The notes below the pieces were generated by a model. That model was not told the origin of the DNA, did not search any database, and saw only the letters and a list, made by a program, of their open reading frames with translations. Below are positions 1 to 42,962 of a stretch of DNA of 64,000 nt, piece by piece (positions within the stretch are counted from its first letter, which is position 1; each line of letters opens with the position of its first letter). Source of the stretch: Limisphaerales bacterium (lineage in GTDB: Bacteria > Verrucomicrobiota > Verrucomicrobiia > Limisphaerales > JBBRWD01). The translations under genes and the position numbers were made by a program. Where the stretch lies: positions 17,308-81,307 of the forward strand of contig JBBRWD010000007.1 of NCBI GenBank assembly GCA_038249465.1, written 5' to 3'.

Positions 1-626
1 GTATCAAGAGCGCCGCTGTCGTGATCTTCGCCATCGGTGAACATCACCAGAATCTTGTGGTTGTCGGTCTTCTCCTTGAACGCTCCGAGCGACGCGGTGA
101 TCGCCTCACTCACTGCGGTGCCACCTTGAGGGATGATGTTCGCTTTAAGTTCGTTGATACTCTGCCAGAAGACCTCGTCGTCGTAGGTGAGCGGGCATTG
201 GAGGAAGGCCGTGCCCGCGAAGGCGACCAGCGCCACGCGATCGGTGCGCGCCAGTTTCTTCAATTCGAACGCGGCCAATTTCGCCTTGGTCAGGCGGTTC
301 GGATTGGTGTCATCCGCGAGCATGCTGCGCGAAACATCGATCGCCACCACTATATCCAGCCCGCGCTGACGCGCCTCCTCCCAATCGTATCCCCAGCGCG
401 GTCCCGCCAGGGCGATGAGGAGAAGGAAGGACGAGCCTAGCACCAAGGCGATGCGCACCTTCTGCCGTTGTTGCGAGACGCTCGACGTGAGATTGCCCAA
501 CAGTCGCGCATGAACGAATTGCGTCATGAGCCGGCGCTTGACCCGCCAGGCCCACCAGAAGAATCCGGCCAGTGCAGCCGTGATGGGCAGCGCCAGCCAG
601 GCGATCCATGGATGTGTGAATTGCAT
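1..626 (-). CDS. VWA domain protein, BatB-like (runs off the window start)
   Basis: Manual translation from ATG 626: MQFTHPWIAWLALP...GPRWG...GLDIVVAIDVSRSMLA (MIDAS DxSxS)...DRVALVAFAG...FTDGED. Not in the ORF track because it is truncated. Follows batA. Confidence 0.85.
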   Translation of the reverse strand, partial: MQFTHPWIAWLALPITAALAGFFWWAWRVKRRLMTQFVHARLLGNLTSSVSQQRQKVRIALVLGSSFLLLIALAGPRWGYDWEEARQRGLDIVVAIDVSRSMLADDTNPNRLTKAKLAAFELKKLARTDRVALVAFAGTAFLQCPLTYDDEVFWQSINELKANIIPQGGTAVSEAITASLGAFKEKTDNHKILVMFTDGEDHDSGALD

Positions 627-646
627 GCTTCAATACTCCAGACCCG

Positions 647-1648
647 TCACGGCAACCGCCGCCAGACGGTCTGGTCCAAAGCGATTCCGAGCAACAGCAG
701 GAAGATCCCGGGCACCAGCACCCAGGGAAACAGTTCCTTCACGTTGACATACTTTTTCACTTCGACCTCGGATTTTTCGAGACGATCAATCTCGTCGTAG
801 ATCTTCTGCAGTGTGTCGGTGCTGTCGGCGCGAAAATATTGTCCGCCTGTTTTCTGGGCGACGGATTTGAGCACGTCCTCATCGATATCCACGGCCACGT
901 TTCGGTAGCCGACAAGCTGCCCGAACTGGCGCACGGGGAAAGGCGCCGTGCCGCGGGTGCCGACGCCGATGGTGTACACTTTCACGCCGAGAGATTGCGC
1001 GGCCTCGGCTGCCGTCCGCGGCGGAACCTTGCCGGCATTGTTCTGCCCGTCGGTCATCAGGATGACGATCTTGCTCTTGGATTGCAGGTCGCGCAGGCGA
1101 TTGATGCTGGCCGCGAGTGCCGAGCCGATGGCGGTGCCGTCCTCAATGGTGTGAAGCTCCAGCCGGCCGAGATTTTGCAGCAGGAACTCATGATCCAGCG
1201 TCATCGGCGCGGCGACATACGCGCGCCCGGCGAAAGCCACCAGGCCGATGCGGTCACCGCTGCGTTTGTCGATGAACTTGCGCAACACATCCTTGGCGAC
1301 CACCAGGCGATTGACCTGACGCCCGGCAACTTTGAAGTCCTCCGACTCCATGCTGCCCGAGAGGTCCAGCGCCACCACGATATCAATGCCGCTCGCTTTG
1401 ATCTTCGTCTCGCTTTGCACAAACTGCGGCCGCGCCAACGCCACGATGAACGCGCCCAACGCCAGCCAACGCAGCGCAGCCAGCACGCGGCCCGCGCTTG
1501 ATGGTTTCAAGTTCGCCACGCTGCGCACGAGTTGCGTCGAGGAGTAGAGAAACGCCGCCTGTTGCGACGCGCGCCGGCCCTTCAGCCATGCCAGCACGGG
1601 CAGCGCGAGCAGCAATAGCAGGAACCATGGATGGTCGAAATGCGGCAC
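647..1648 (-). CDS. VWA domain protein, BatA-like
   Basis: N-terminal 'FDHPWFLLLLL' TM, DLSGSM MIDAS, DRIGLVAFAG, TDGQNN, C-terminal TM; lies in the moxR-DUF58 operon. Confidence 0.9.
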   Translation of the reverse strand: MPHFDHPWFLLLLLALPVLAWLKGRRASQQAAFLYSSTQLVRSVANLKPSSAGRVLAALRWLALGAFIVALARPQFVQSETKIKASGIDIVVALDLSGSMESEDFKVAGRQVNRLVVAKDVLRKFIDKRSGDRIGLVAFAGRAYVAAPMTLDHEFLLQNLGRLELHTIEDGTAIGSALAASINRLRDLQSKSKIVILMTDGQNNAGKVPPRTAAEAAQSLGVKVYTIGVGTRGTAPFPVRQFGQLVGYRNVAVDIDEDVLKSVAQKTGGQYFRADSTDTLQKIYDEIDRLEKSEVEVKKYVNVKELFPWVLVPGIFLLLLGIALDQTVWRRLP

Positions 1649-1652
1649 GGAT

Positions 1653-2282
1653 TTAGCGTGTTTCGGGTTTTGAACTTTGTGTTACGAGCGGCGGGGGCAG
1701 GGCTCCGTCCGGGGCCGCCGCGATGGGATCGAACTGCGTCTCATCCACCAGGCGCAGCGCACTCTGGTGCAGCTCGCGTAGCGATTCCTCGGTTGGTTCG
1801 AATCGAGCGAACTTCACCAAGTCGCAGCTCTGGAGGAATCCACCGAGACTTTCCTTTTGCAGATCGTTCAGTCGATTCGTGCCCTGAAGCTCCGTGAGGA
1901 ATTCCTCCGTGGTGCGGTCCGGCGCGTGAAAGTCAAAACGCTCTTCGAGGTACATGCGCAGTGCGTCCGACACCGCCGTGCAAAAAGGCTTCGGCTCGCT
2001 GATCAGCCGGAGTGCTTCTTCCAAGCGATGGCGAGCACGTACATGTGGCGGAGTCGGCGGAATCGCCAGCGGTTGCAGGCGACGCCGCCACCAGCGCGTG
2101 AGCAGGAATGCCAGCGCGGCGATGACCAACGCGCCGCCCAACCACCAGACCCACTCCCAACCGCTCGGGATCGGCACCGGCGGCTTGACCGGTCGGAGAT
2201 CGTTCGTACCGGAAAGCGATGTCGTTGCCGCCGGCGTGGCGGTCTTTGGCGGGACAATCAAGGCTATCGAGTTCGTGGCCAT
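1653..2282 (-). CDS. Membrane-anchored Bat-operon protein (DUF4381-like)
   Basis: Single TM, 'S.ALR.YLE.RF...TTEE' and 'DLVKFA' motifs; typical position between DUF58 and batA. Confidence 0.7.
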   Translation of the reverse strand: MATNSIALIVPPKTATPAATTSLSGTNDLRPVKPPVPIPSGWEWVWWLGGALVIAALAFLLTRWWRRRLQPLAIPPTPPHVRARHRLEEALRLISEPKPFCTAVSDALRMYLEERFDFHAPDRTTEEFLTELQGTNRLNDLQKESLGGFLQSCDLVKFARFEPTEESLRELHQSALRLVDETQFDPIAAAPDGALPPPLVTQSSKPETR

Positions 2283-2296
2283 CGGTGAAATCGCTT

Positions 2297-3256
2297 TCAG
2301 CCGTGCAAGCGTCGCTTCTCGCGGGTTTCAAAAAACTTCCCCAGCGCTGCGGCGTAAGGCTGGCCGGCGAGAAGCTGGATGGAATCAATATTGGCCGAAC
2401 GGAACATGCGCACCAGTTCCGTCTGCGCCTTCTGTTGGCGTTCCTGGAACGAGGCCCGCAAACGGCCCACGCCGGTGTTCACTTCCATCACCTTGCCCGT
2501 CTCGGAGTCCTCCAGCATCAGCCGGCCGATGTTCGGCAGCTCCATTTCGTAGCGGTCGGCGATATGGACGGCGACGACGTCGTGGCGGCGGTTGGCCTGA
2601 CGGAGCGCGTTGAAGCAGCCGAGCGAAAGATGCGACTGACCGGCGCTCATCCCGCCGCGCATTGAGCGGACCGGCGTGTTGCGGGTCGGCATGCTTTCGT
2701 CGAGGAAATCGGAAATCACCACCGCGATGGCGCGATGCGCGGTGACGCGGCGGAGAAATTCCAACGCGGTGTTGAGGTTCGTGCCGCGGCGCTTCGGCTC
2801 GAAGAACAGAATTTCGCGGATGACGCGCAGCACATGGCGGCGGCCCTTCCGCGGCGGCATGTATTTCTCCACCTCGTCCGTGAAGAGAATCAGCCCGACC
2901 TTGTCGTTGTTGCGAATGGCGGAGAAGGCGAGCACCGAGGCAATCTCGGCGGCGAGCTCGCGCTTGGATTGTTCGCTGGAACCAAAGAGGCCAGAGGCGC
3001 TGAGATCTACGACGAGCATGAGCGTCAACTCGCGTTCCTCGACGAACTTCTTCACGAACGGATGATTCATCCGCGCGGTGACATTCCAATCAATGGCGCG
3101 GACTTCATCGCCGGGCTGATACTCGCGGACCTCCTCGAAGTTCATGCCCTGACCCTTGAAGACGCTATGGTACTGCCCGGCGAGCGACTCGCTCACCAGC
3201 CGGCTGGTGCGAATCTCGATCTGGCGGATCTTCTTGAGAATTTCGCGAGGAATCAT
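2297..3256 (-). CDS. DUF58 domain protein
   Basis: Start MIPREILKK at 3256; 'G.YHSVFKGQGMNFEEVREYQPGDEVRAIDWNVTAR' signature; moxR operon context. Confidence 0.9.
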   Translation of the reverse strand: MIPREILKKIRQIEIRTSRLVSESLAGQYHSVFKGQGMNFEEVREYQPGDEVRAIDWNVTARMNHPFVKKFVEERELTLMLVVDLSASGLFGSSEQSKRELAAEIASVLAFSAIRNNDKVGLILFTDEVEKYMPPRKGRRHVLRVIREILFFEPKRRGTNLNTALEFLRRVTAHRAIAVVISDFLDESMPTRNTPVRSMRGGMSAGQSHLSLGCFNALRQANRRHDVVAVHIADRYEMELPNIGRLMLEDSETGKVMEVNTGVGRLRASFQERQQKAQTELVRMFRSANIDSIQLLAGQPYAAALGKFFETREKRRLHG

Positions 3257-3275
3257 ACGAACGCGTGAGGAGTCG

Positions 3276-3485
3276 TCAGTCGAGTTGCCACACAAACATC
3301 TCCGGGCGACCGGTGGCGCGACGAATCTCGTTGGCCCGCCTCTGGAGACCAACCAAGATGCGAAGCTTTTCTTCAATCGGCAGGCGCGCGGCCTCGTGGC
3401 GACTGGCGCGCTTTCGCTCGAAGATTTCTTCCGCGATTTTCTTCACTTGGGGACTCATGACTTCGACGTTTTGAACTGGTTCCAT
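3276..3485 (-). CDS. Small basic helical protein, putative partner/antitoxin of the upstream nucleotidyltransferase
   Basis: 69 aa ORF overlapping the 3' end of the NTase-like gene; 'K..SRHEAARLPIEEKLRIL..LQ' pattern. Confidence 0.55.
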   Translation of the reverse strand: MEPVQNVEVMSPQVKKIAEEIFERKRASRHEAARLPIEEKLRILVGLQRRANEIRRATGRPEMFVWQLD

Positions 3486-3961
3486 TTGTCGGTCAACTGG
3501 TGGCGATTCAGGATCTCAGTAAGAGCGTTAGAATCCACTTCAGCTTCGTCCAGCAACATGGCCACGCGGGCGGAATCCTTGGTCCGTCCGGTCTTGAGGG
3601 CGATGGCAATGAGGTGTTCGACACGCATGACTCTGGTTGTCGTTTGTCCAACGAGACGCTCGATAGCCTGCCGGACTGCTTCTTCAGTCAGCGCATCGTA
3701 GGCTGGGATGAGTTGAACGAGCGTGCCCGCCAACACGAGATGCTCGCGTCGTTCGATTGCGCCCCGCGCTTTCAAGTAATCATAGATAGGAGTCAAGGAG
3801 AGCAATCCGTTGGCGGGCTGTTTCATCAAGATGAAAGCATCCAGATCCTCGGTGACGACCGCTTCGGCATAAAACAAGGCCGCCAGCGCGCCACCGATGG
3901 CGTAACGATCCACCAATCCGGACTTCTCCAGGTCGTTAAGGATTTGAATCGTCTTTTCCAT
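3455..3961 (-). CDS. Nucleotidyltransferase-like protein (Pol-beta superfamily, AbiEii/DUF6036-like)
   Basis: Likely start MEKTIQIL; 'YAIGGALA..Y....TEDLD' motif and C-terminal 'GR.KD'. Confidence 0.7.
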   Translation of the reverse strand: MEKTIQILNDLEKSGLVDRYAIGGALAALFYAEAVVTEDLDAFILMKQPANGLLSLTPIYDYLKARGAIERREHLVLAGTLVQLIPAYDALTEEAVRQAIERLVGQTTTRVMRVEHLIAIALKTGRTKDSARVAMLLDEAEVDSNALTEILNRHQLTDKWNQFKTSKS

Positions 3962-3999
3962 GCTGTCTCGTTCCGTCATTGCAGAATGATGGTCAACTT

Positions 4000-4113
4000 T
4001 CAGCCGCAAATCGAACAAGCCTCCCGCGCCGGCCCGGGCACCGCCTCGCTCACCACTAAGCTGGTGCGAATCTCGATCTGGCGGAACTTCTTGAGGATTT
4101 CGCGAGGGATCAT
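4000..4113 (-). pseudogene. Duplicated 5' fragment of the DUF58 gene (37 aa: MIPREILKKFRQIEIRTSLVVSEAVPG...)
   Basis: About 65 nt nearly identical to 3190-3256 (the start of the intact DUF58 gene), then diverges to a stop at 4000. Confidence 0.8.
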
Positions 4114-4352
4114 TCGGGGTCACTCAGGCAGTTCTTATATCGTCGATAGGCAAACCACGCCAAAGTCGCAGAGCCGAACGTGAAGCATGTGGTGGGTGCT
4201 CGTAGATCGATGCGTATGCGCCGCGGCTGCGGTGATTCAGCCGGCTTGCGCTTCCATTGGACAGTGGCGAGCCAGGAGCCAATGCAGACCGGCGCAAGGA
4301 TGATGGCCAAAAAACAAAAGACCACGGTTAGCGACAGCCAGAAGTCTTTCAT
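4110..4352 (-). CDS. Small hypothetical membrane protein
   Basis: Hydrophobic ORF right after the moxR stop; its TGA overlaps the ATG of the DUF58 fragment (ATGA). Start uncertain. Confidence 0.4.
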   Translation of the reverse strand: MKDFWLSLTVVFCFLAIILAPVCIGSWLATVQWKRKPAESPQPRRIRIDLRAPTTCFTFGSATLAWFAYRRYKNCLSDPE

Positions 4353-4369
4353 GGCTTTCATTCTCTGCT

Positions 4370-5359
4370 TCACGGCACCGGCAGCTCATCAAAAATCTTT
4401 TGCACGATGGTCTCGCTCGTCTTCTCTTCCGCCTCGGCCTCGTAAGTGATGGTGACGCGATGGCGGAGCACGTCCATGCCGATGCTCTTTACGTCCTGTG
4501 GCGTGACATAGCCGCGGCCTTTCAGGAACGCGTACGCCTTGGCGGCGAGAGTTAGAGCAATCGTGGCACGCGGCGAGGCGCCGAGTTGGATCAGTCCTTG
4601 GAGTTGGAGATTGTAGTGCGCCGGATCGCGCGTGGCGCAAACCAGATCCACGATGTAGTCCTTCACCTTGTCGTCGATGTAGATGTCATTGATGACTTCG
4701 CGCGCGGCTAGAATCGTCTTGGCATCCACCACCGCCTTGGCCTCGGGCAGATGGCTGGTCTTGGCCATCAAGTCGAGAATCTGCCGTTCCTCCTCGCGCG
4801 AGGGATAACCGATCTTCAGCTTCAACATGAAGCGATCCACCTGCGCCTCGGGCAACGGGTAGGTGCCCTCCTGCTCGATGGGATTCTGCGTCGCCAGCAC
4901 GAGGAAAGGCTCTTCCAACTTAAAAGTATGATCGCCTATCGTGACCTGCTTCTCCTGCATTGCTTCCAGCAGCGCGCTCTGCACCTTGGCCGGGGCGCGA
5001 TTGATTTCGTCGGCGAGGACGAGGTTAGAGAAAACGGGGCCTTTACGCGTGGTAAACCCGCCGGATTGAGGGTTGTAAATCTGCGTGCCGATGACGTCGG
5101 CGGGCAGCATGTCGGGGGTGAATTGGAGTCGTGCGAATTTGGTGCTCAAGCTGGCGGCCAGCGTTTTCACCGACAGCGTCTTGGCGAGACCGGGCACGCC
5201 TTCGAGCAGCACGTGCCCGTTGGCCAGCAGTCCGATGACGAGGCGCTCGACGAGGTAGTTCTGGCCGATGACGACCCGGCCGATTTCGGTGAACAGCGGG
5301 CGGATGAATTCACCCGACCGTTTGACTTCTTCGTTGATGGCAGTAATTCCGTTACTCAT
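4370..5359 (-). CDS. moxR: MoxR-family AAA+ ATPase
   Basis: GVPGLAKT Walker A, LADEINR Walker B, ATQNPIEQEGTYPLPEAQ.DRF. Confidence 0.95.
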   Translation of the reverse strand: MSNGITAINEEVKRSGEFIRPLFTEIGRVVIGQNYLVERLVIGLLANGHVLLEGVPGLAKTLSVKTLAASLSTKFARLQFTPDMLPADVIGTQIYNPQSGGFTTRKGPVFSNLVLADEINRAPAKVQSALLEAMQEKQVTIGDHTFKLEEPFLVLATQNPIEQEGTYPLPEAQVDRFMLKLKIGYPSREEERQILDLMAKTSHLPEAKAVVDAKTILAAREVINDIYIDDKVKDYIVDLVCATRDPAHYNLQLQGLIQLGASPRATIALTLAAKAYAFLKGRGYVTPQDVKSIGMDVLRHRVTITYEAEAEEKTSETIVQKIFDELPVP

Positions 5360-5684
5360 GACGCTTGATGTTGTCGCGGTGGATGACACCAGAAATCTCC
5401 CCGGTGTTCAACTCTTGCGCAAAAGTGATTAATAAGGGGTCGGGCCTTACTACCAAACTCATGTCGAGCAATGGAGCTTTTAGAATCACCTGACACTGGC
5501 AGGGCTCTGCGGCTTGTCTCGCATTCGTCGCCCTGCTGATTTTTTGTAAGGTTCTTTGGCGCTCCGGGGCGGCAGTTCAATTCGCTGGCATGACGAGGGT
5601 AAAGCCGATCCGGCCTTCAACCATTGAATTCGGGTGCAGAACCGGTTTGCCGCCTGGAAGCAAACACGGTATTCTTCGCCCGAC

Positions 5685-40907: not shown

Positions 40908-42962
40908 ATGTCTGCCCCAGCTCCCAACCTCAATCCGGCCCGTGTTCTTCCACCATCCGCTCACGGAACTGCGATACCGCGCCACCGCCGCCGGAGAAGT
41001 CCGTGCGCTTACGCGTGGGTGGCGCTGAGCCTGCTCCTCGTCTCGCCGGCAATCCGGGTGTGGTGCCAGTCCAGCGGACGCATTCCTGGAACCGTGGTCA
41101 GTTGGGGCAGGCAAGTGTTCCCGCACATTGAGTCTGGAACACGCTTCACGGCTATCGCCGCCGGACGCGATCACAATCTGGCGCTCGACTTCGAAGGGAT
41201 GGTCGTGGCGTGGGGAGACAACTATGTTGGCCAAAGCACGGCACCGACGGGATTGAGAGGCGTCATCGCCATCGCTGCGGGAGCGAGTCACAGTCTGGCG
41301 CTCAAATCCGACGGAGCAGTCGTAGCCTGGGGAGCCAACGGTTCTGGCCAGAGTACGGTGCCCGGTGGTCTGGGCAGCATCATCGCCATCGCCGCGGGAA
41401 ATGCTCACAGTCTGGCGCTCCAGTCCGACGGAATGGTCGTGGCGTGGGGATCTAATAATTATGGCCAGAGCACGGTGCCCAGTGGTCTGAGCAACGTCGT
41501 CGCCGTCGCCGCAGGAGAGCAGCACGGTCTGGCGCTCAAATCCAACGGGACGGTCGTGGCTTGGGGAGCCAACGGTTCTGGCCAGAGCACCGTGCCGAGT
41601 GATCTGAGCGGCGTCATGGCAATCGCCGCAGGAGGGTATTACAGCCTGGCGCTCAAATCCGACGGGACTGTCGTGGCGTGGGGAGCCAACTATTCTGGCC
41701 AAAGCACAGTGCCAATCGGTCTGAGCGGCGTCATGGCCATCGCCGCAGGAGGGGAGCACAGTCTGGCGCTCAAATCCGACGGGACAGTCGTGGCTTGGGG
41801 AGCCGACGGTGCTGGCCAGAGCACGGTGCCCGGTGGTCTGGGCAGCATCATCGCCATCGCCGCAGGAAATGCTCACAGTTTGGCGCTCAAATCCAACGGT
41901 GCTGTCGTGGCGTGGGGAAACAACTATGTTGGCCAAAGCACGGCACCGACCGGATTGGGGGGCGTCATCACCATCGCCGCGGGATTGAGTCACAGTCTGG
42001 CGCTCAAATCCGACGGAACAGTCGTGGCTTGGGGAGCCAGCGGTGCTGGCCAGAGCACGGTGCCCGGTGGTCTGGGCAGCGTCATCGCCATCGCCGCAGG
42101 ATACGCTCACAGTCTGGCGCTCAAATCCGACGGAACAATCGTGGCTTGGGGATACGACAGTTCTGGGCAGAGCACGGTGCCCAGTGGTCTGAGCAACGTC
42201 GTCGCTGTTGCCGCAGGAGAGCGGCACAGCCTGGCGCTCAAATCCGACGGTACGGTCGTGGTGTGGGGAGCCAACGATTATGGCCAGAGCACGGTGCCCG
42301 GTGGTCTGAGCAACGTCATCGCCGTCGCCGCAGGAGAGCGGCACAGTTTGGCGCTCAAATCCGACGGTACGGTCGTGGTGTGGGGAGCCAACGATTTCTG
42401 CCAAAGCACAGTGCCAATCGGTCTGAGCGGAGTCATGGCCATAGCCGCAGCAGTGGAGCACAGTCTGGCGCTCAAATCTGACGGCACGGTCGTGGCATGG
42501 GGGCAAATTTGGAATGGCTCTTTTGCGAATTCCTTACCGGTTTACGTACCAGAAACCGTTCCAAACGGACTGAGCGGCGTCATCGCAATCGCCGCAGGAG
42601 CGGATCACAGTCTGGCGCTCAAATCCGACGGGACGGTCGAGGCGTGGGGATACAACGGTGCTGGCCAAAGCACGGTCCCGAGCGGTTTGAACGGCGTCAT
42701 CGCCATCGCCGCTGGATGGGGACACAGTCTGGCGCTGGTTCGAGATCGCGTCTGCTTCGGCTCGGCATGGTCTCCGGGCGACGGCTCTTTCCGCTTGACC
42801 ATCGGCAACGTGATGGGCCGCACCGTGCGGCTGGAGGTTTCGACAAACCTGGTCGATTGGGGCGCGGTCACGAATTTCATCGGCACCACCAACACGGTTC
42901 TCTTCCAAGACCCCGCCATCACCAACACGAGCCGCCGGTTCTACCGGGCGGTTGTCCCATGA
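40908..42962 (+). CDS. RCC1/BLIP-II repeat protein (14 repeats, mostly 39 aa) with C-terminal 'STNLVDW...RRFYRA' motif
   Basis: Repeats of VVAWG.N..GQSTVP.GL..V.AIAAG..HSLALKSDG with a 117-bp unit. Confidence 0.9.
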   Translation: MSAPAPNLNPARVLPPSAHGTAIPRHRRRRSPCAYAWVALSLLLVSPAIRVWCQSSGRIPGTVVSWGRQVFPHIESGTRFTAIAAGRDHNLALDFEGMVVAWGDNYVGQSTAPTGLRGVIAIAAGASHSLALKSDGAVVAWGANGSGQSTVPGGLGSIIAIAAGNAHSLALQSDGMVVAWGSNNYGQSTVPSGLSNVVAVAAGEQHGLALKSNGTVVAWGANGSGQSTVPSDLSGVMAIAAGGYYSLALKSDGTVVAWGANYSGQSTVPIGLSGVMAIAAGGEHSLALKSDGTVVAWGADGAGQSTVPGGLGSIIAIAAGNAHSLALKSNGAVVAWGNNYVGQSTAPTGLGGVITIAAGLSHSLALKSDGTVVAWGASGAGQSTVPGGLGSVIAIAAGYAHSLALKSDGTIVAWGYDSSGQSTVPSGLSNVVAVAAGERHSLALKSDGTVVVWGANDYGQSTVPGGLSNVIAVAAGERHSLALKSDGTVVVWGANDFCQSTVPIGLSGVMAIAAAVEHSLALKSDGTVVAWGQIWNGSFANSLPVYVPETVPNGLSGVIAIAAGADHSLALKSDGTVEAWGYNGAGQSTVPSGLNGVIAIAAGWGHSLALVRDRVCFGSAWSPGDGSFRLTIGNVMGRTVRLEVSTNLVDWGAVTNFIGTTNTVLFQDPAITNTSRRFYRAVVP

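Follow-up and report, generated by a model that had tools for sequence, protein, structure and literature searches.

Integrative elements such as phage 21 and e14 at icd, and the cis-mobilizable elements (CIMEs) of Streptococcus, carry a replacement for the end of the gene that they enter, and the minimal mobile elements of Neisseria are alternative cassettes that occupy the interval between a pair of conserved genes, homologous recombination in the flanks serving for their exchange. Restriction-modification gene units are reportedly inserted with a long duplication of the target, as Nobusato et al. are said to have described in 2000. In the present study, we analyzed the junction between moxR and a DUF58 gene in a 64,000-nucleotide (nt) stretch of DNA from a Limisphaerales bacterium (contig JBBRWD010000007.1, positions 17,308 to 81,307; hereafter, the window), where two small genes lie between two copies of the first codons of DUF58. 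For restriction-modification units, Furuta et al. (2010; PMC2853133), in the part of their article drawn on here, require direct repeats of more than 30 bp, a relative in which the site is empty, and an insert of less than 20 kb that contains no gene of another mobile element. According to the same part, the direct repeats reach ~420 bp and often touch gene ends, and a cycle of insertion, amplification and release is proposed, the mechanism of which is not shown there.

We found that the moxR-DUF58 junction is an insertion hotspot, probably a long-lived one, across the order to which the window belongs. Direct repeats longer than 30 bp match a target that is single-copy in the genomes with an empty site, and the frame opened by the ATG of the additional (orphan) DUF58 start, here called the relay frame, is depleted of stop codons. 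On balance, we favor the explanation that the junction receives cassettes that lack a recombinase and carry copies of gene ends, that host recombination moves them, and that the relay frame is under selection.

The moxR-DUF58 junction in the window and in relatives

In the window, a Bat-like operon runs on the minus strand from 5389 to 647 in the order moxR, DUF58, a DUF4381-like gene and a BatA/VWA gene. The interval between moxR (4370..5389; an AAA+ ATPase, the first gene of the operon stretch, with Pfam AAA_3 at E 1.8e-65 and AAA_lid_2 at 3.7e-23) and the intact DUF58 gene (2297..3256; VWA-type, 319 amino acids (aa), with Pfam DUF58 at E 2.8e-82 and VWA_2 at 1.8e-17) contains 1117 nt of extra DNA. 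The locus has one direct repeat of 85 nt (3175-3259 and 4032-4116, minus strand, 86% identical, 857 nt apart), which corresponds to the first ~28 codons of DUF58. The downstream copy is the true start of the intact gene (ATG at 3256), and the upstream copy is an orphan (ATG at 4113; nhmmer profile positions 1-74, E 9e-19), the frame of which ends after 37 codons at 4000. The likeness of the two copies starts at the ATG, and the DNA upstream of the two ATGs is unrelated. The orphan copy of the window is 89% identical to its own true copy and, on average, 75% identical to the copies of other genomes.

Between the two copies, on the same strand, lie a gene for a MenT1/AbiEii-like minimal nucleotidyltransferase (NT), a putative toxin (3455..3964, or from an alternative ATG at 3979; 169-174 aa), and downstream of it a gene for a 69-aa partner, a putative antitoxin (3276..3485). 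The orphan frame ends 20 or 35 nt before the NT gene, depending on the NT start, and the 69-aa open reading frame (ORF) overlaps the NT ORF by 31 nt and is followed after 19 nt by the true DUF58 ATG. Between the moxR stop and the orphan copy is an 87-aa membrane-like ORF (4110..4373, minus strand) without a Pfam or NCBIfam family, the TGA of which overlaps the orphan ATG (ATGA). By eye, its last codons overlap a short sequence that resembles the end of moxR (ELP-stop). No Pfam recombinase was found among the window ORFs of the locus, where the insert is 857 nt. The tyrosine recombinase family PF00589 has 21 matches in the genome and 0 on the 121-kb contig of the window (C7), serine recombinases and transposases not having been searched for genome-wide. 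There are no inverted repeats at the repeat boundaries, and the RNA fold of the DUF58 start has a z of +0.74 (no attC model was applied); no Rfam family was found in window positions 2000-5600. An earlier note on this DNA had already described the duplicated DUF58 5' end, the NT-like gene and small partner between the copies, the membrane ORF with its ATGA overlap and the lack of an integrase, and our results agree with it in each of these respects.

The NT protein has only a weak Pfam match (DUF2204, E 7e-5, 22.9 bits) and no match to Pfam AbiEii (PF08843) above the curated threshold; neither it nor the partner belongs to an NCBIfam family, and the partner has no Pfam family. Residues G24, G25, D40 and D42 (GG...D.D, the Pol-beta-type hGG...DxD motif) are invariant in 17 NT homologues. 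Against the PDB, the single sequence gave spurious matches to repeat proteins only, and a profile of the homologues matched 8an4_A of the AbiEii/AbiGii toxin family (E 0.007). With an AlphaFold2 model (predicted local distance difference test score, 92.3), the top Foldseek matches were MenT1/MenAT1 (8an5_B and 8an4_B, E 1e-7, template modeling score 0.69). We read the NT gene and its partner as a putative MenAT-like toxin-antitoxin (TA) module. It is like MenAT1 of Mycobacterium tuberculosis (PDB 8an4/8an5) in fold, in the GG...DxD motif and in the pairing with a small protein, but the window NT is only 17-19% identical to it and the partner has no detectable likeness to any family. The partner also lies downstream of the NT gene in L004, L132, L137, L170 and L149 (L-numbers denote the fetched loci). 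At the moxR-DUF58 junction itself, NT and partner are found in L132, flanked by one decayed and one intact DUF58 start and followed by a ParE cassette, and in L137, L170, L149 and L188, with fragments in L148 and L181. Homologues of NT occur at various places in 15 of 61 genomes (the window's counted), and a second paralogue, 43% identical, is encoded elsewhere in the genome of the window (G000:C6:7149-7646, L003).

The locus stretch is single-copy in the genome. In a separately assembled public run, which may be the source sample, the whole stretch lies on one contig of 1860 nt (X1) with 0 differences. Contigs of X2, X3 and X4, public sediment metagenomes from two other studies for which there are contigs only, so that depth is uninformative, join 4113/4114 to 4370/4374 and lack the 87-aa ORF; other contigs of X3 and X4 keep it. 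The population variation seen in these contig joins sits exactly on gene boundaries. Three other joins (one from 3149 to 4818, one backwards from 4113 to 3276 that includes 19 other letters, and one backwards from 3265 to 3180) were ambiguous, coming from divergent strains or other organisms and having short sides, and were not used.

The relatives are soil and sediment bacteria, Verrucomicrobiota bins of the Limisphaerales/Pedosphaera-like kind according to the record titles, some of which are plainly mislabelled. Bins L126, L131, L132, L134, L149, L165, L187 and L203, titled Bifidobacterium, Acidoferrum, Limnocylindria and so on, are probably mislabelled or mixed. The genome of the window is alone in its family, and the search covered 60 other families with one genome each; a DUF58 orthologue was found in 57 of the 61 genomes (the window's counted). 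In a first set of 47 loci from 46 genomes, the moxR stop overlaps the DUF58 ATG or lies up to 178 nt before it in 24 loci, the gap is 593-3888 nt in 15, moxR is absent from the fetched 3-6 kb in 4, and 4 are cut by contig ends, including L084, which still has an extra DUF58 start. In a second set of 80 loci, which shares some genomes with the first, the gap is 200 nt or less in 43, 200-500 nt in 3 and more than 500 nt in 20, and moxR was not reached in 14. Relatives show adjacency of the two genes, varied cargo, and cargo with a DUF58-start copy in front of it, and it was varied cargo with such copies that the earlier note had named as support for its model.

The cargo was classified by a Pfam scan of ORFs of at least 55-66 aa in 32 expanded intervals (L093-L095 and L103 left out), and TA modules make up most of it. 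The commonest by far is a ParE toxin with an Unstab_antitox antitoxin, on the strand opposite to the operon; PF05016 and PF09720 were both above the cut-off in L051, L052, L054, L055, L058, L063, L084, L089, L097, L098, L102, L104 and L105. Other opposite-strand cargo includes DUF433+DUF5615 (L068) and an UPF0167 ORF (L091). On the operon strand there are DUF4160+DUF2442, MazE+PIN, UPF0175+DUF3368, a HicB-like gene, Barstar and three IS200 transposases, and further cargo comprises VanY, HEAT, CN-hydrolase, DUF6304, DUF4272, a PQQ propeller, HNH, peptidase S41, PD-(D/E)XK, KilA-N and a beta-lactamase-like gene. No recombinase was found in the examined cassettes except the IS200-type transposases in 3 loci. 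Species of genus g52 differ both in inter-copy spacing (206 to 1071 nt) and in cargo, and three of them have IS200-type Y1 transposase genes inside the interval (L068, L087, L089). Gene-less inserts of 206-407 nt (L101:4594-5001, L104:3779-4323 and L086:4795-5001, oriented coordinates) consist of GC-rich palindromic DNA, similar to repetitive extragenic palindromes or miniature inverted-repeat transposable elements, between two DUF58 starts, with two tandem 272-nt units included.

An 81-nt query from the DUF58 start matched 279 of 401 genomes of the order, a tally that takes in one unpublished genome (G310) on which nothing else rests. At least 65 of these 279 genomes have two or more matches, only two candidates having been scored per genome, and in at least eight of the 65 the two matches are on different contigs. 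Among the fetched loci, a profile search identified 26 that have 2-4 full copies and 40 that have a single one. All full copies begin at profile position 1, the ATG, and L094 adds one partial copy; the inner ends vary from position 60 to 77 between cassette families. Arrays of three or four copies are present in L051, L052, L104, L127, L131, L132, L146 and L182, with four in L104 and L182; the arrays of relatives, foreseen in the earlier note, hold 2-3 cassettes. For 29 pairs of an orphan and its own true copy (the frameshifted copy L052:5093 left out), identity is 0.30-0.43 in the 60 nt before the ATG (0.36-0.43 in the last 30 nt), 0.93-0.94 at +1..40 (0.93 at +1..20), 0.64-0.72 at +61..80 and 0.23-0.29 beyond. 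The identity of orphan copies is 90% with the true copy of the same genome and 87% with the true copies of other genomes, the own true copy being the closer one for 22 of 29 orphans (Wilcoxon p 0.005). Conservation between genomes is 0.90 for orphan copies and 0.88 for true copies, and the variation of orphan copies is mostly at third codon positions; the N-terminal 25 codons of their frame evolve like coding DNA. A division of DUF58 starts into an element type and a native type was dropped; there was one diagnostic site, at which orphan and true copies agree in 15 of 17 genomes. The 3' end of moxR is copied as well: eight loci hold nine orphan fragments, which begin at a distance of 48-100 nt from the stop, and eight of the nine finish in ...DELPVP-stop.

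Gene ends are duplicated elsewhere in the genome of the window, too. A whole-genome k-mer scan for direct repeats of 50-400 nt at a spacing of 150-4000 nt found 133 direct repeats, 22 of them strictly two-copy; the scan is conservative, because it missed the DUF58-start repeat (86%). On C46, C9, C59, C51 and C16, 3' gene ends are duplicated around Pfam-confirmed TA or defense genes. The end of an oxidoreductase gene is duplicated around a PIN gene, that of a decarboxylase gene around Uma2, and that of a tRNA-synthetase gene around a pair of AAA_15/AAA_21 and DUF3226; other gene-end-flanked cargo is DUF4160+DUF2442 and DUF433+DUF5615 (loci L107-L115 and L117, for example G000:C9:54643-55680, C59:16907-18031 and C16:60724-62728). 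The duplicated housekeeping 3' ends (decarboxylase, oxidoreductase, tRNA synthetase, UbiD) are 90-99% identical, with cassettes of 0.85-1.9 kb, and gene-end repeats finish at or near the stop codon (L120-L125 were left out of the scan). PemK (C10), NTase+HEPN (C36) and PIN+RHH (C24) lie between two-copy repeats that are not tied to a named gene end. Diversity-generating retroelements were ruled out as the source of the gene-end repeats, since mismatches are not adenine-specific.

As for the rest of the window, the DUF4381-like gene (1653-2282, minus strand) scores 23.8 bits, under the Pfam cut-off of 27.2, and the BatA/VWA gene (647-1648, minus strand) was assigned by Pfam. At positions 41154-42502, a 117-nt unit is repeated in tandem 11.5 times (78% matches); judged by eye, the array resembles a protein gene with RCC1-type beta-propeller repeats, and this would be nothing unusual.

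The frame opened by the orphan start codon

In 24 of 30 inter-copy segments, which are not a random sample because their loci were picked for two copies, the frame of the orphan ATG is free of stops as far as the next DUF58 start, where the TGA of an ATGA closes it. There are 1-18 stops in the other two frames, and the segment length is 2 modulo 3 in 25 of the 30. Ten of 12 further valid segments are open as well (one partial edge segment was dropped). In the ParE family, the relay frame is antisense to the toxin and antitoxin genes, which occupy different frames. The variability at codon positions 3, 1 and 2 of ParE is 0.445, 0.297 and 0.232, and it tracks the codons of ParE and of the antitoxin and not those of the relay frame; the latter is therefore kept open without evolving as a protein. 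Under a null model in which both proteins were kept, synonymous codons were redrawn from moxR usage and non-coding parts were shuffled, the chance of an open frame is 0.9-37% per ParE cassette, so that 2.5 of 18 would be expected to be open and 18 of 18 were, with the limit that these cassettes are related, hence non-independent, although they differ at 25-45% of sites. For the other families, the shuffle probability of an open frame is 0.0002 (L050), 0.022, 0.042, 0.10, 0.11 and 0.35-0.38.

Five of the six segments without a relay (the window, L064, L087, L095 and L103) carry ORFs on the operon strand, and the sixth, of 108 nt in L052, continues into the following copy without a change of frame. 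The cargo gene of L056, which is lipoprotein-like, is itself fused to the DUF58 start. The relay frame is open across the gene-less palindromic inserts, too (L101, L104, L086).

Stop codons are therefore depleted in the relay frame over cargo of several kinds. The probable explanation is selection for unbroken translation from the insertion point to DUF58, either for translational coupling or against Rho-type polarity. The orphan DUF58 start would be retained by selection, and its ATG would open a frame that passes over cargo that is antisense or does not code, up to the ATGA at which the next DUF58 begins. As this frame is stop-free across the insert, ribosomes would cover the whole insert and arrive at DUF58, by which translation coupling may be protected and polarity on the downstream bat genes prevented. 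In the window, the cargo is co-directional with the operon and closely packed, a relay would be unneeded, and the orphan start (a 37-codon dead end, 86% identical) thus appears to be decaying.

A different possibility is that the relay frame is a true overlapping gene, for example one whose product engages MoxR by its DUF58 N-terminal peptide. The preservation of the frame would be expected of a gene, the N-terminal 25 codons evolve as coding sequence, and the frame of L056 is a real lipoprotein-like gene fused to the DUF58 start. However, over ParE the first codon position of the relay is the most variable one (0.445), which is the signature of a gene on the opposite strand, and the frame is open over unrelated cargo that includes palindromic repeat elements. 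Moreover, no NCBIfam family was found for the relay products of L054, L056 and L050, nor a Pfam family for those of L054 and L050, that of L056 having only a sub-threshold match to Asp_protease_2. We consider an overlapping gene quite improbable.

Tandem 7-nt repeats were seen directly 5' of post-cassette DUF58 starts, within 20-45 nt (for example in L052, L058, L084 and L104). The period-7 self-match is 0.50 after cassettes and 0.33 in single-copy loci, and a period-7 score of at least 0.6 was obtained for 12 of 30 post-cassette starts versus 2 of 40 single-copy starts. These repeats could be the operator or promoter side of the antisense TA genes, or a frame-setting device. An extension of the selected relay, which we put forward tentatively and hold for less probable than the relay itself, is that the first ~25 codons of DUF58 act as a portable start adaptor, by which operons could tolerate selfish antisense inserts and translation is restarted where the insert begins, that stops are purged behind it, and that the 7-nt repeats could set or switch the ending of the relay. 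If so, each 7-nt unit would shift the frame by one, and the expression of the downstream bat genes would be phase-variable.

Probable movement of the cassettes and rival explanations

A single ParE/antitoxin cassette family accounts for 17 of the first 30 inter-copy segments, and in it cassette identity is hardly correlated with host moxR identity (r = 0.18, 119 pairs). Hosts of the same genus with moxR 91-92% identical have cassettes only 57-59% identical, and two hosts of different families have cassettes 77% identical. We built cassette trees without L093, which has the antitoxin only; the genera tested, g52 and g76, had been picked by taxonomy codes before tree building. The four cassettes of g52 fall into four clades, two of them sister to the cassettes of other families with 99-100% support, and the moxR tree groups the hosts as expected. 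Monophyly was rejected by the approximately unbiased test for the cassettes of g52 (p 2.6e-14) and of g76 (p 1.1e-4). We conclude that cassettes are replaced or exchanged at the junction.

In the explanation that we favor, small cassettes without a recombinase, mostly TA modules and sometimes single genes or gene-less repeats, would settle at the junction, bounded by the first ~60-80 nt of DUF58 from the ATG or by the last ~50-110 nt of moxR to the stop codon. They would be gained, lost, stacked and swapped between lineages at one site, and the mover is probably host homologous recombination through the conserved gene ends and the flanking genes. The proposal of the earlier note that recombination regenerates the DUF58 start is a reasonable model, but the patchwork that a single crossover would be expected to leave is not seen in the two copies of a genome. 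The note had also proposed that the cargo is expressed from the moxR operon, and this is not supported for the commonest cargo, ParE with its antitoxin, or for several other modules, which lie on the opposite strand. Operon expression may hold at best for co-directional cargo such as that of the window. Nor is the phenomenon specific to this junction, since moxR 3' ends are duplicated too and gene-end duplications are found at other genes of the genome.

Several points weigh against this explanation. The 30 segments come from loci chosen for two copies, and a common cassette ancestry unites 17-18 of them. Only 17 of 30 orphan copies are preceded by a long frame that ends on their ATGA, the other 13 lacking one, and the position of the moxR stop at empty sites ranges from an overlap with the DUF58 ATG to 178 nt upstream of it; strict coupling of termination and reinitiation is therefore no general rule. 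A relay is absent from the window's own cassette. As to exchange, the cassette is more similar than the hosts' moxR in 0 of 119 pairs, so that the data contain no recent transfer, and the sorting of old lineages of cassettes keeps some probability as an alternative. Orphan and true copies of one genome lack the chimerism expected after a single crossover (at the one diagnostic site, 15 of 17 agree). Furthermore, all genomes are metagenome bins, in which repeats may mislead assemblers.

The strongest rival, which is nevertheless unlikely in our judgement, is that a site-specific recombinase encoded elsewhere in the genome moves the cassettes, in the manner of cis-mobilizable elements or of integron cassettes without an integrase, and uses the DUF58 start and the moxR end as att sites, by which the targets are kept intact, as with phage 21 and e14 at icd. 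The repeats have sharp boundaries on gene termini, as in elements that carry a replacement gene end, the cassette arrays resemble integrons, and the genome has 21 matches to tyrosine recombinases. However, 0 of these PF00589 matches are on the window's contig, and the examined cassettes contain no recombinase save the IS200-type transposases in 3 loci. The inner repeat end shifts from +60 to +77 between cassette families, conserved termini were absent from the 4 DUF4160/DUF2442 cassettes, there are no boundary inverted repeats, and a fold z of +0.74 is not unusual. In addition, many different target genes are used in one genome.

There is only a small chance that the DUF58 start was duplicated once, in the order's ancestor, and inherited vertically with many losses, in which case the cargo alone was turned over and the cassettes are not mobile units. 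A common outer boundary (the ATG) in all copies, the likeness of the orphan and true copies of one genome and the 0 of 119 cassette pairs closer than host moxR would be accounted for in this way, but the strong conflict between the cassette tree and the moxR tree and the differences in spacing (206 to 1071 nt) and cargo among species of the same genus would not. A neutral 75-nt remnant would not remain 90% identical across families, the arrays and the tandem 272-nt units point to continuing duplication, and like duplications at 97-99% identity are present at other genes of the genome. Finally, the genome of the window is a metagenome bin and its two copies are each other's closest relatives, yet an assembly artefact or a one-off local duplication, which the earlier note had named as its refutation, is extremely improbable because the same architecture recurs in dozens of other genomes from other studies and in a separate contig set, and in L132 the NT gene and partner occupy the same site with DUF58-start copies flanking them.

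Significance and comparison with described systems

Full-text literature searches, on which the novelty of these observations rests, returned no moxR-DUF58 hotspot, no TA cassettes with duplicated gene ends and no relay frames. The results illustrate across many genomes how TA and other selfish cassettes may spread without a recombinase of their own, by way of conserved gene ends, a pattern of long target duplication that had previously been documented mainly for restriction-modification genes. Because one junction is a landing pad common to the whole order, it offers a defined site for the study of how cassettes are gained, lost, stacked and swapped. A relay frame over antisense cargo would be a measurable signature of selection for ribosome traffic and not for a protein. 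Its confirmation would have consequences for operon polarity, for translational coupling and for the reading of long shadow ORFs in GC-rich genomes, and also for genome annotation, in which the relay frame may be called by gene callers where the toxin genes should be. If general, relay frames would be a new class of selected ORFs that do not code for protein and would give a rule for the settling of TA cassettes.

The minimal mobile elements of Neisseria share with this locus the alternative cassettes between two conserved genes; duplicated gene ends and a relay frame are not known to belong to that concept. Integron arrays and clusters of attC sites lacking integrases (CALINs) are similar in that small cassettes, often promoter-less or of the TA kind and bounded by repeats, occupy a fixed site in a transcription unit. 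However, no integron integrase is nearby in the present case, the repeats are copies of coding gene ends, apparently in place of attC hairpins, and most of the cargo is antisense to the operon. With the elements that carry a replacement gene end, the locus shares direct repeats that extend from inside the target gene to its terminus and leave the target intact. Those elements own or borrow a known integrase and have a defined core, neither of which was found here; moreover, the inserts here are 0.2-1.4 kb, and 5' as well as 3' gene ends are involved.

The closest known kind is insertion with long target duplication, as far as it is set out in the part of Furuta et al. drawn on above, and the structural features given there are found here: a small selfish unit, no mobility gene, long direct repeats and a single-copy target. 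The cassettes differ from the units described in that part in that the cargo consists of TA modules and other genes, with no restriction-modification, and in that one junction is reused across an order, with the formation of arrays. Furthermore, the boundaries here lie exactly on start and stop codons, and a stop-free relay frame leads from the orphan start to the next DUF58 gene.

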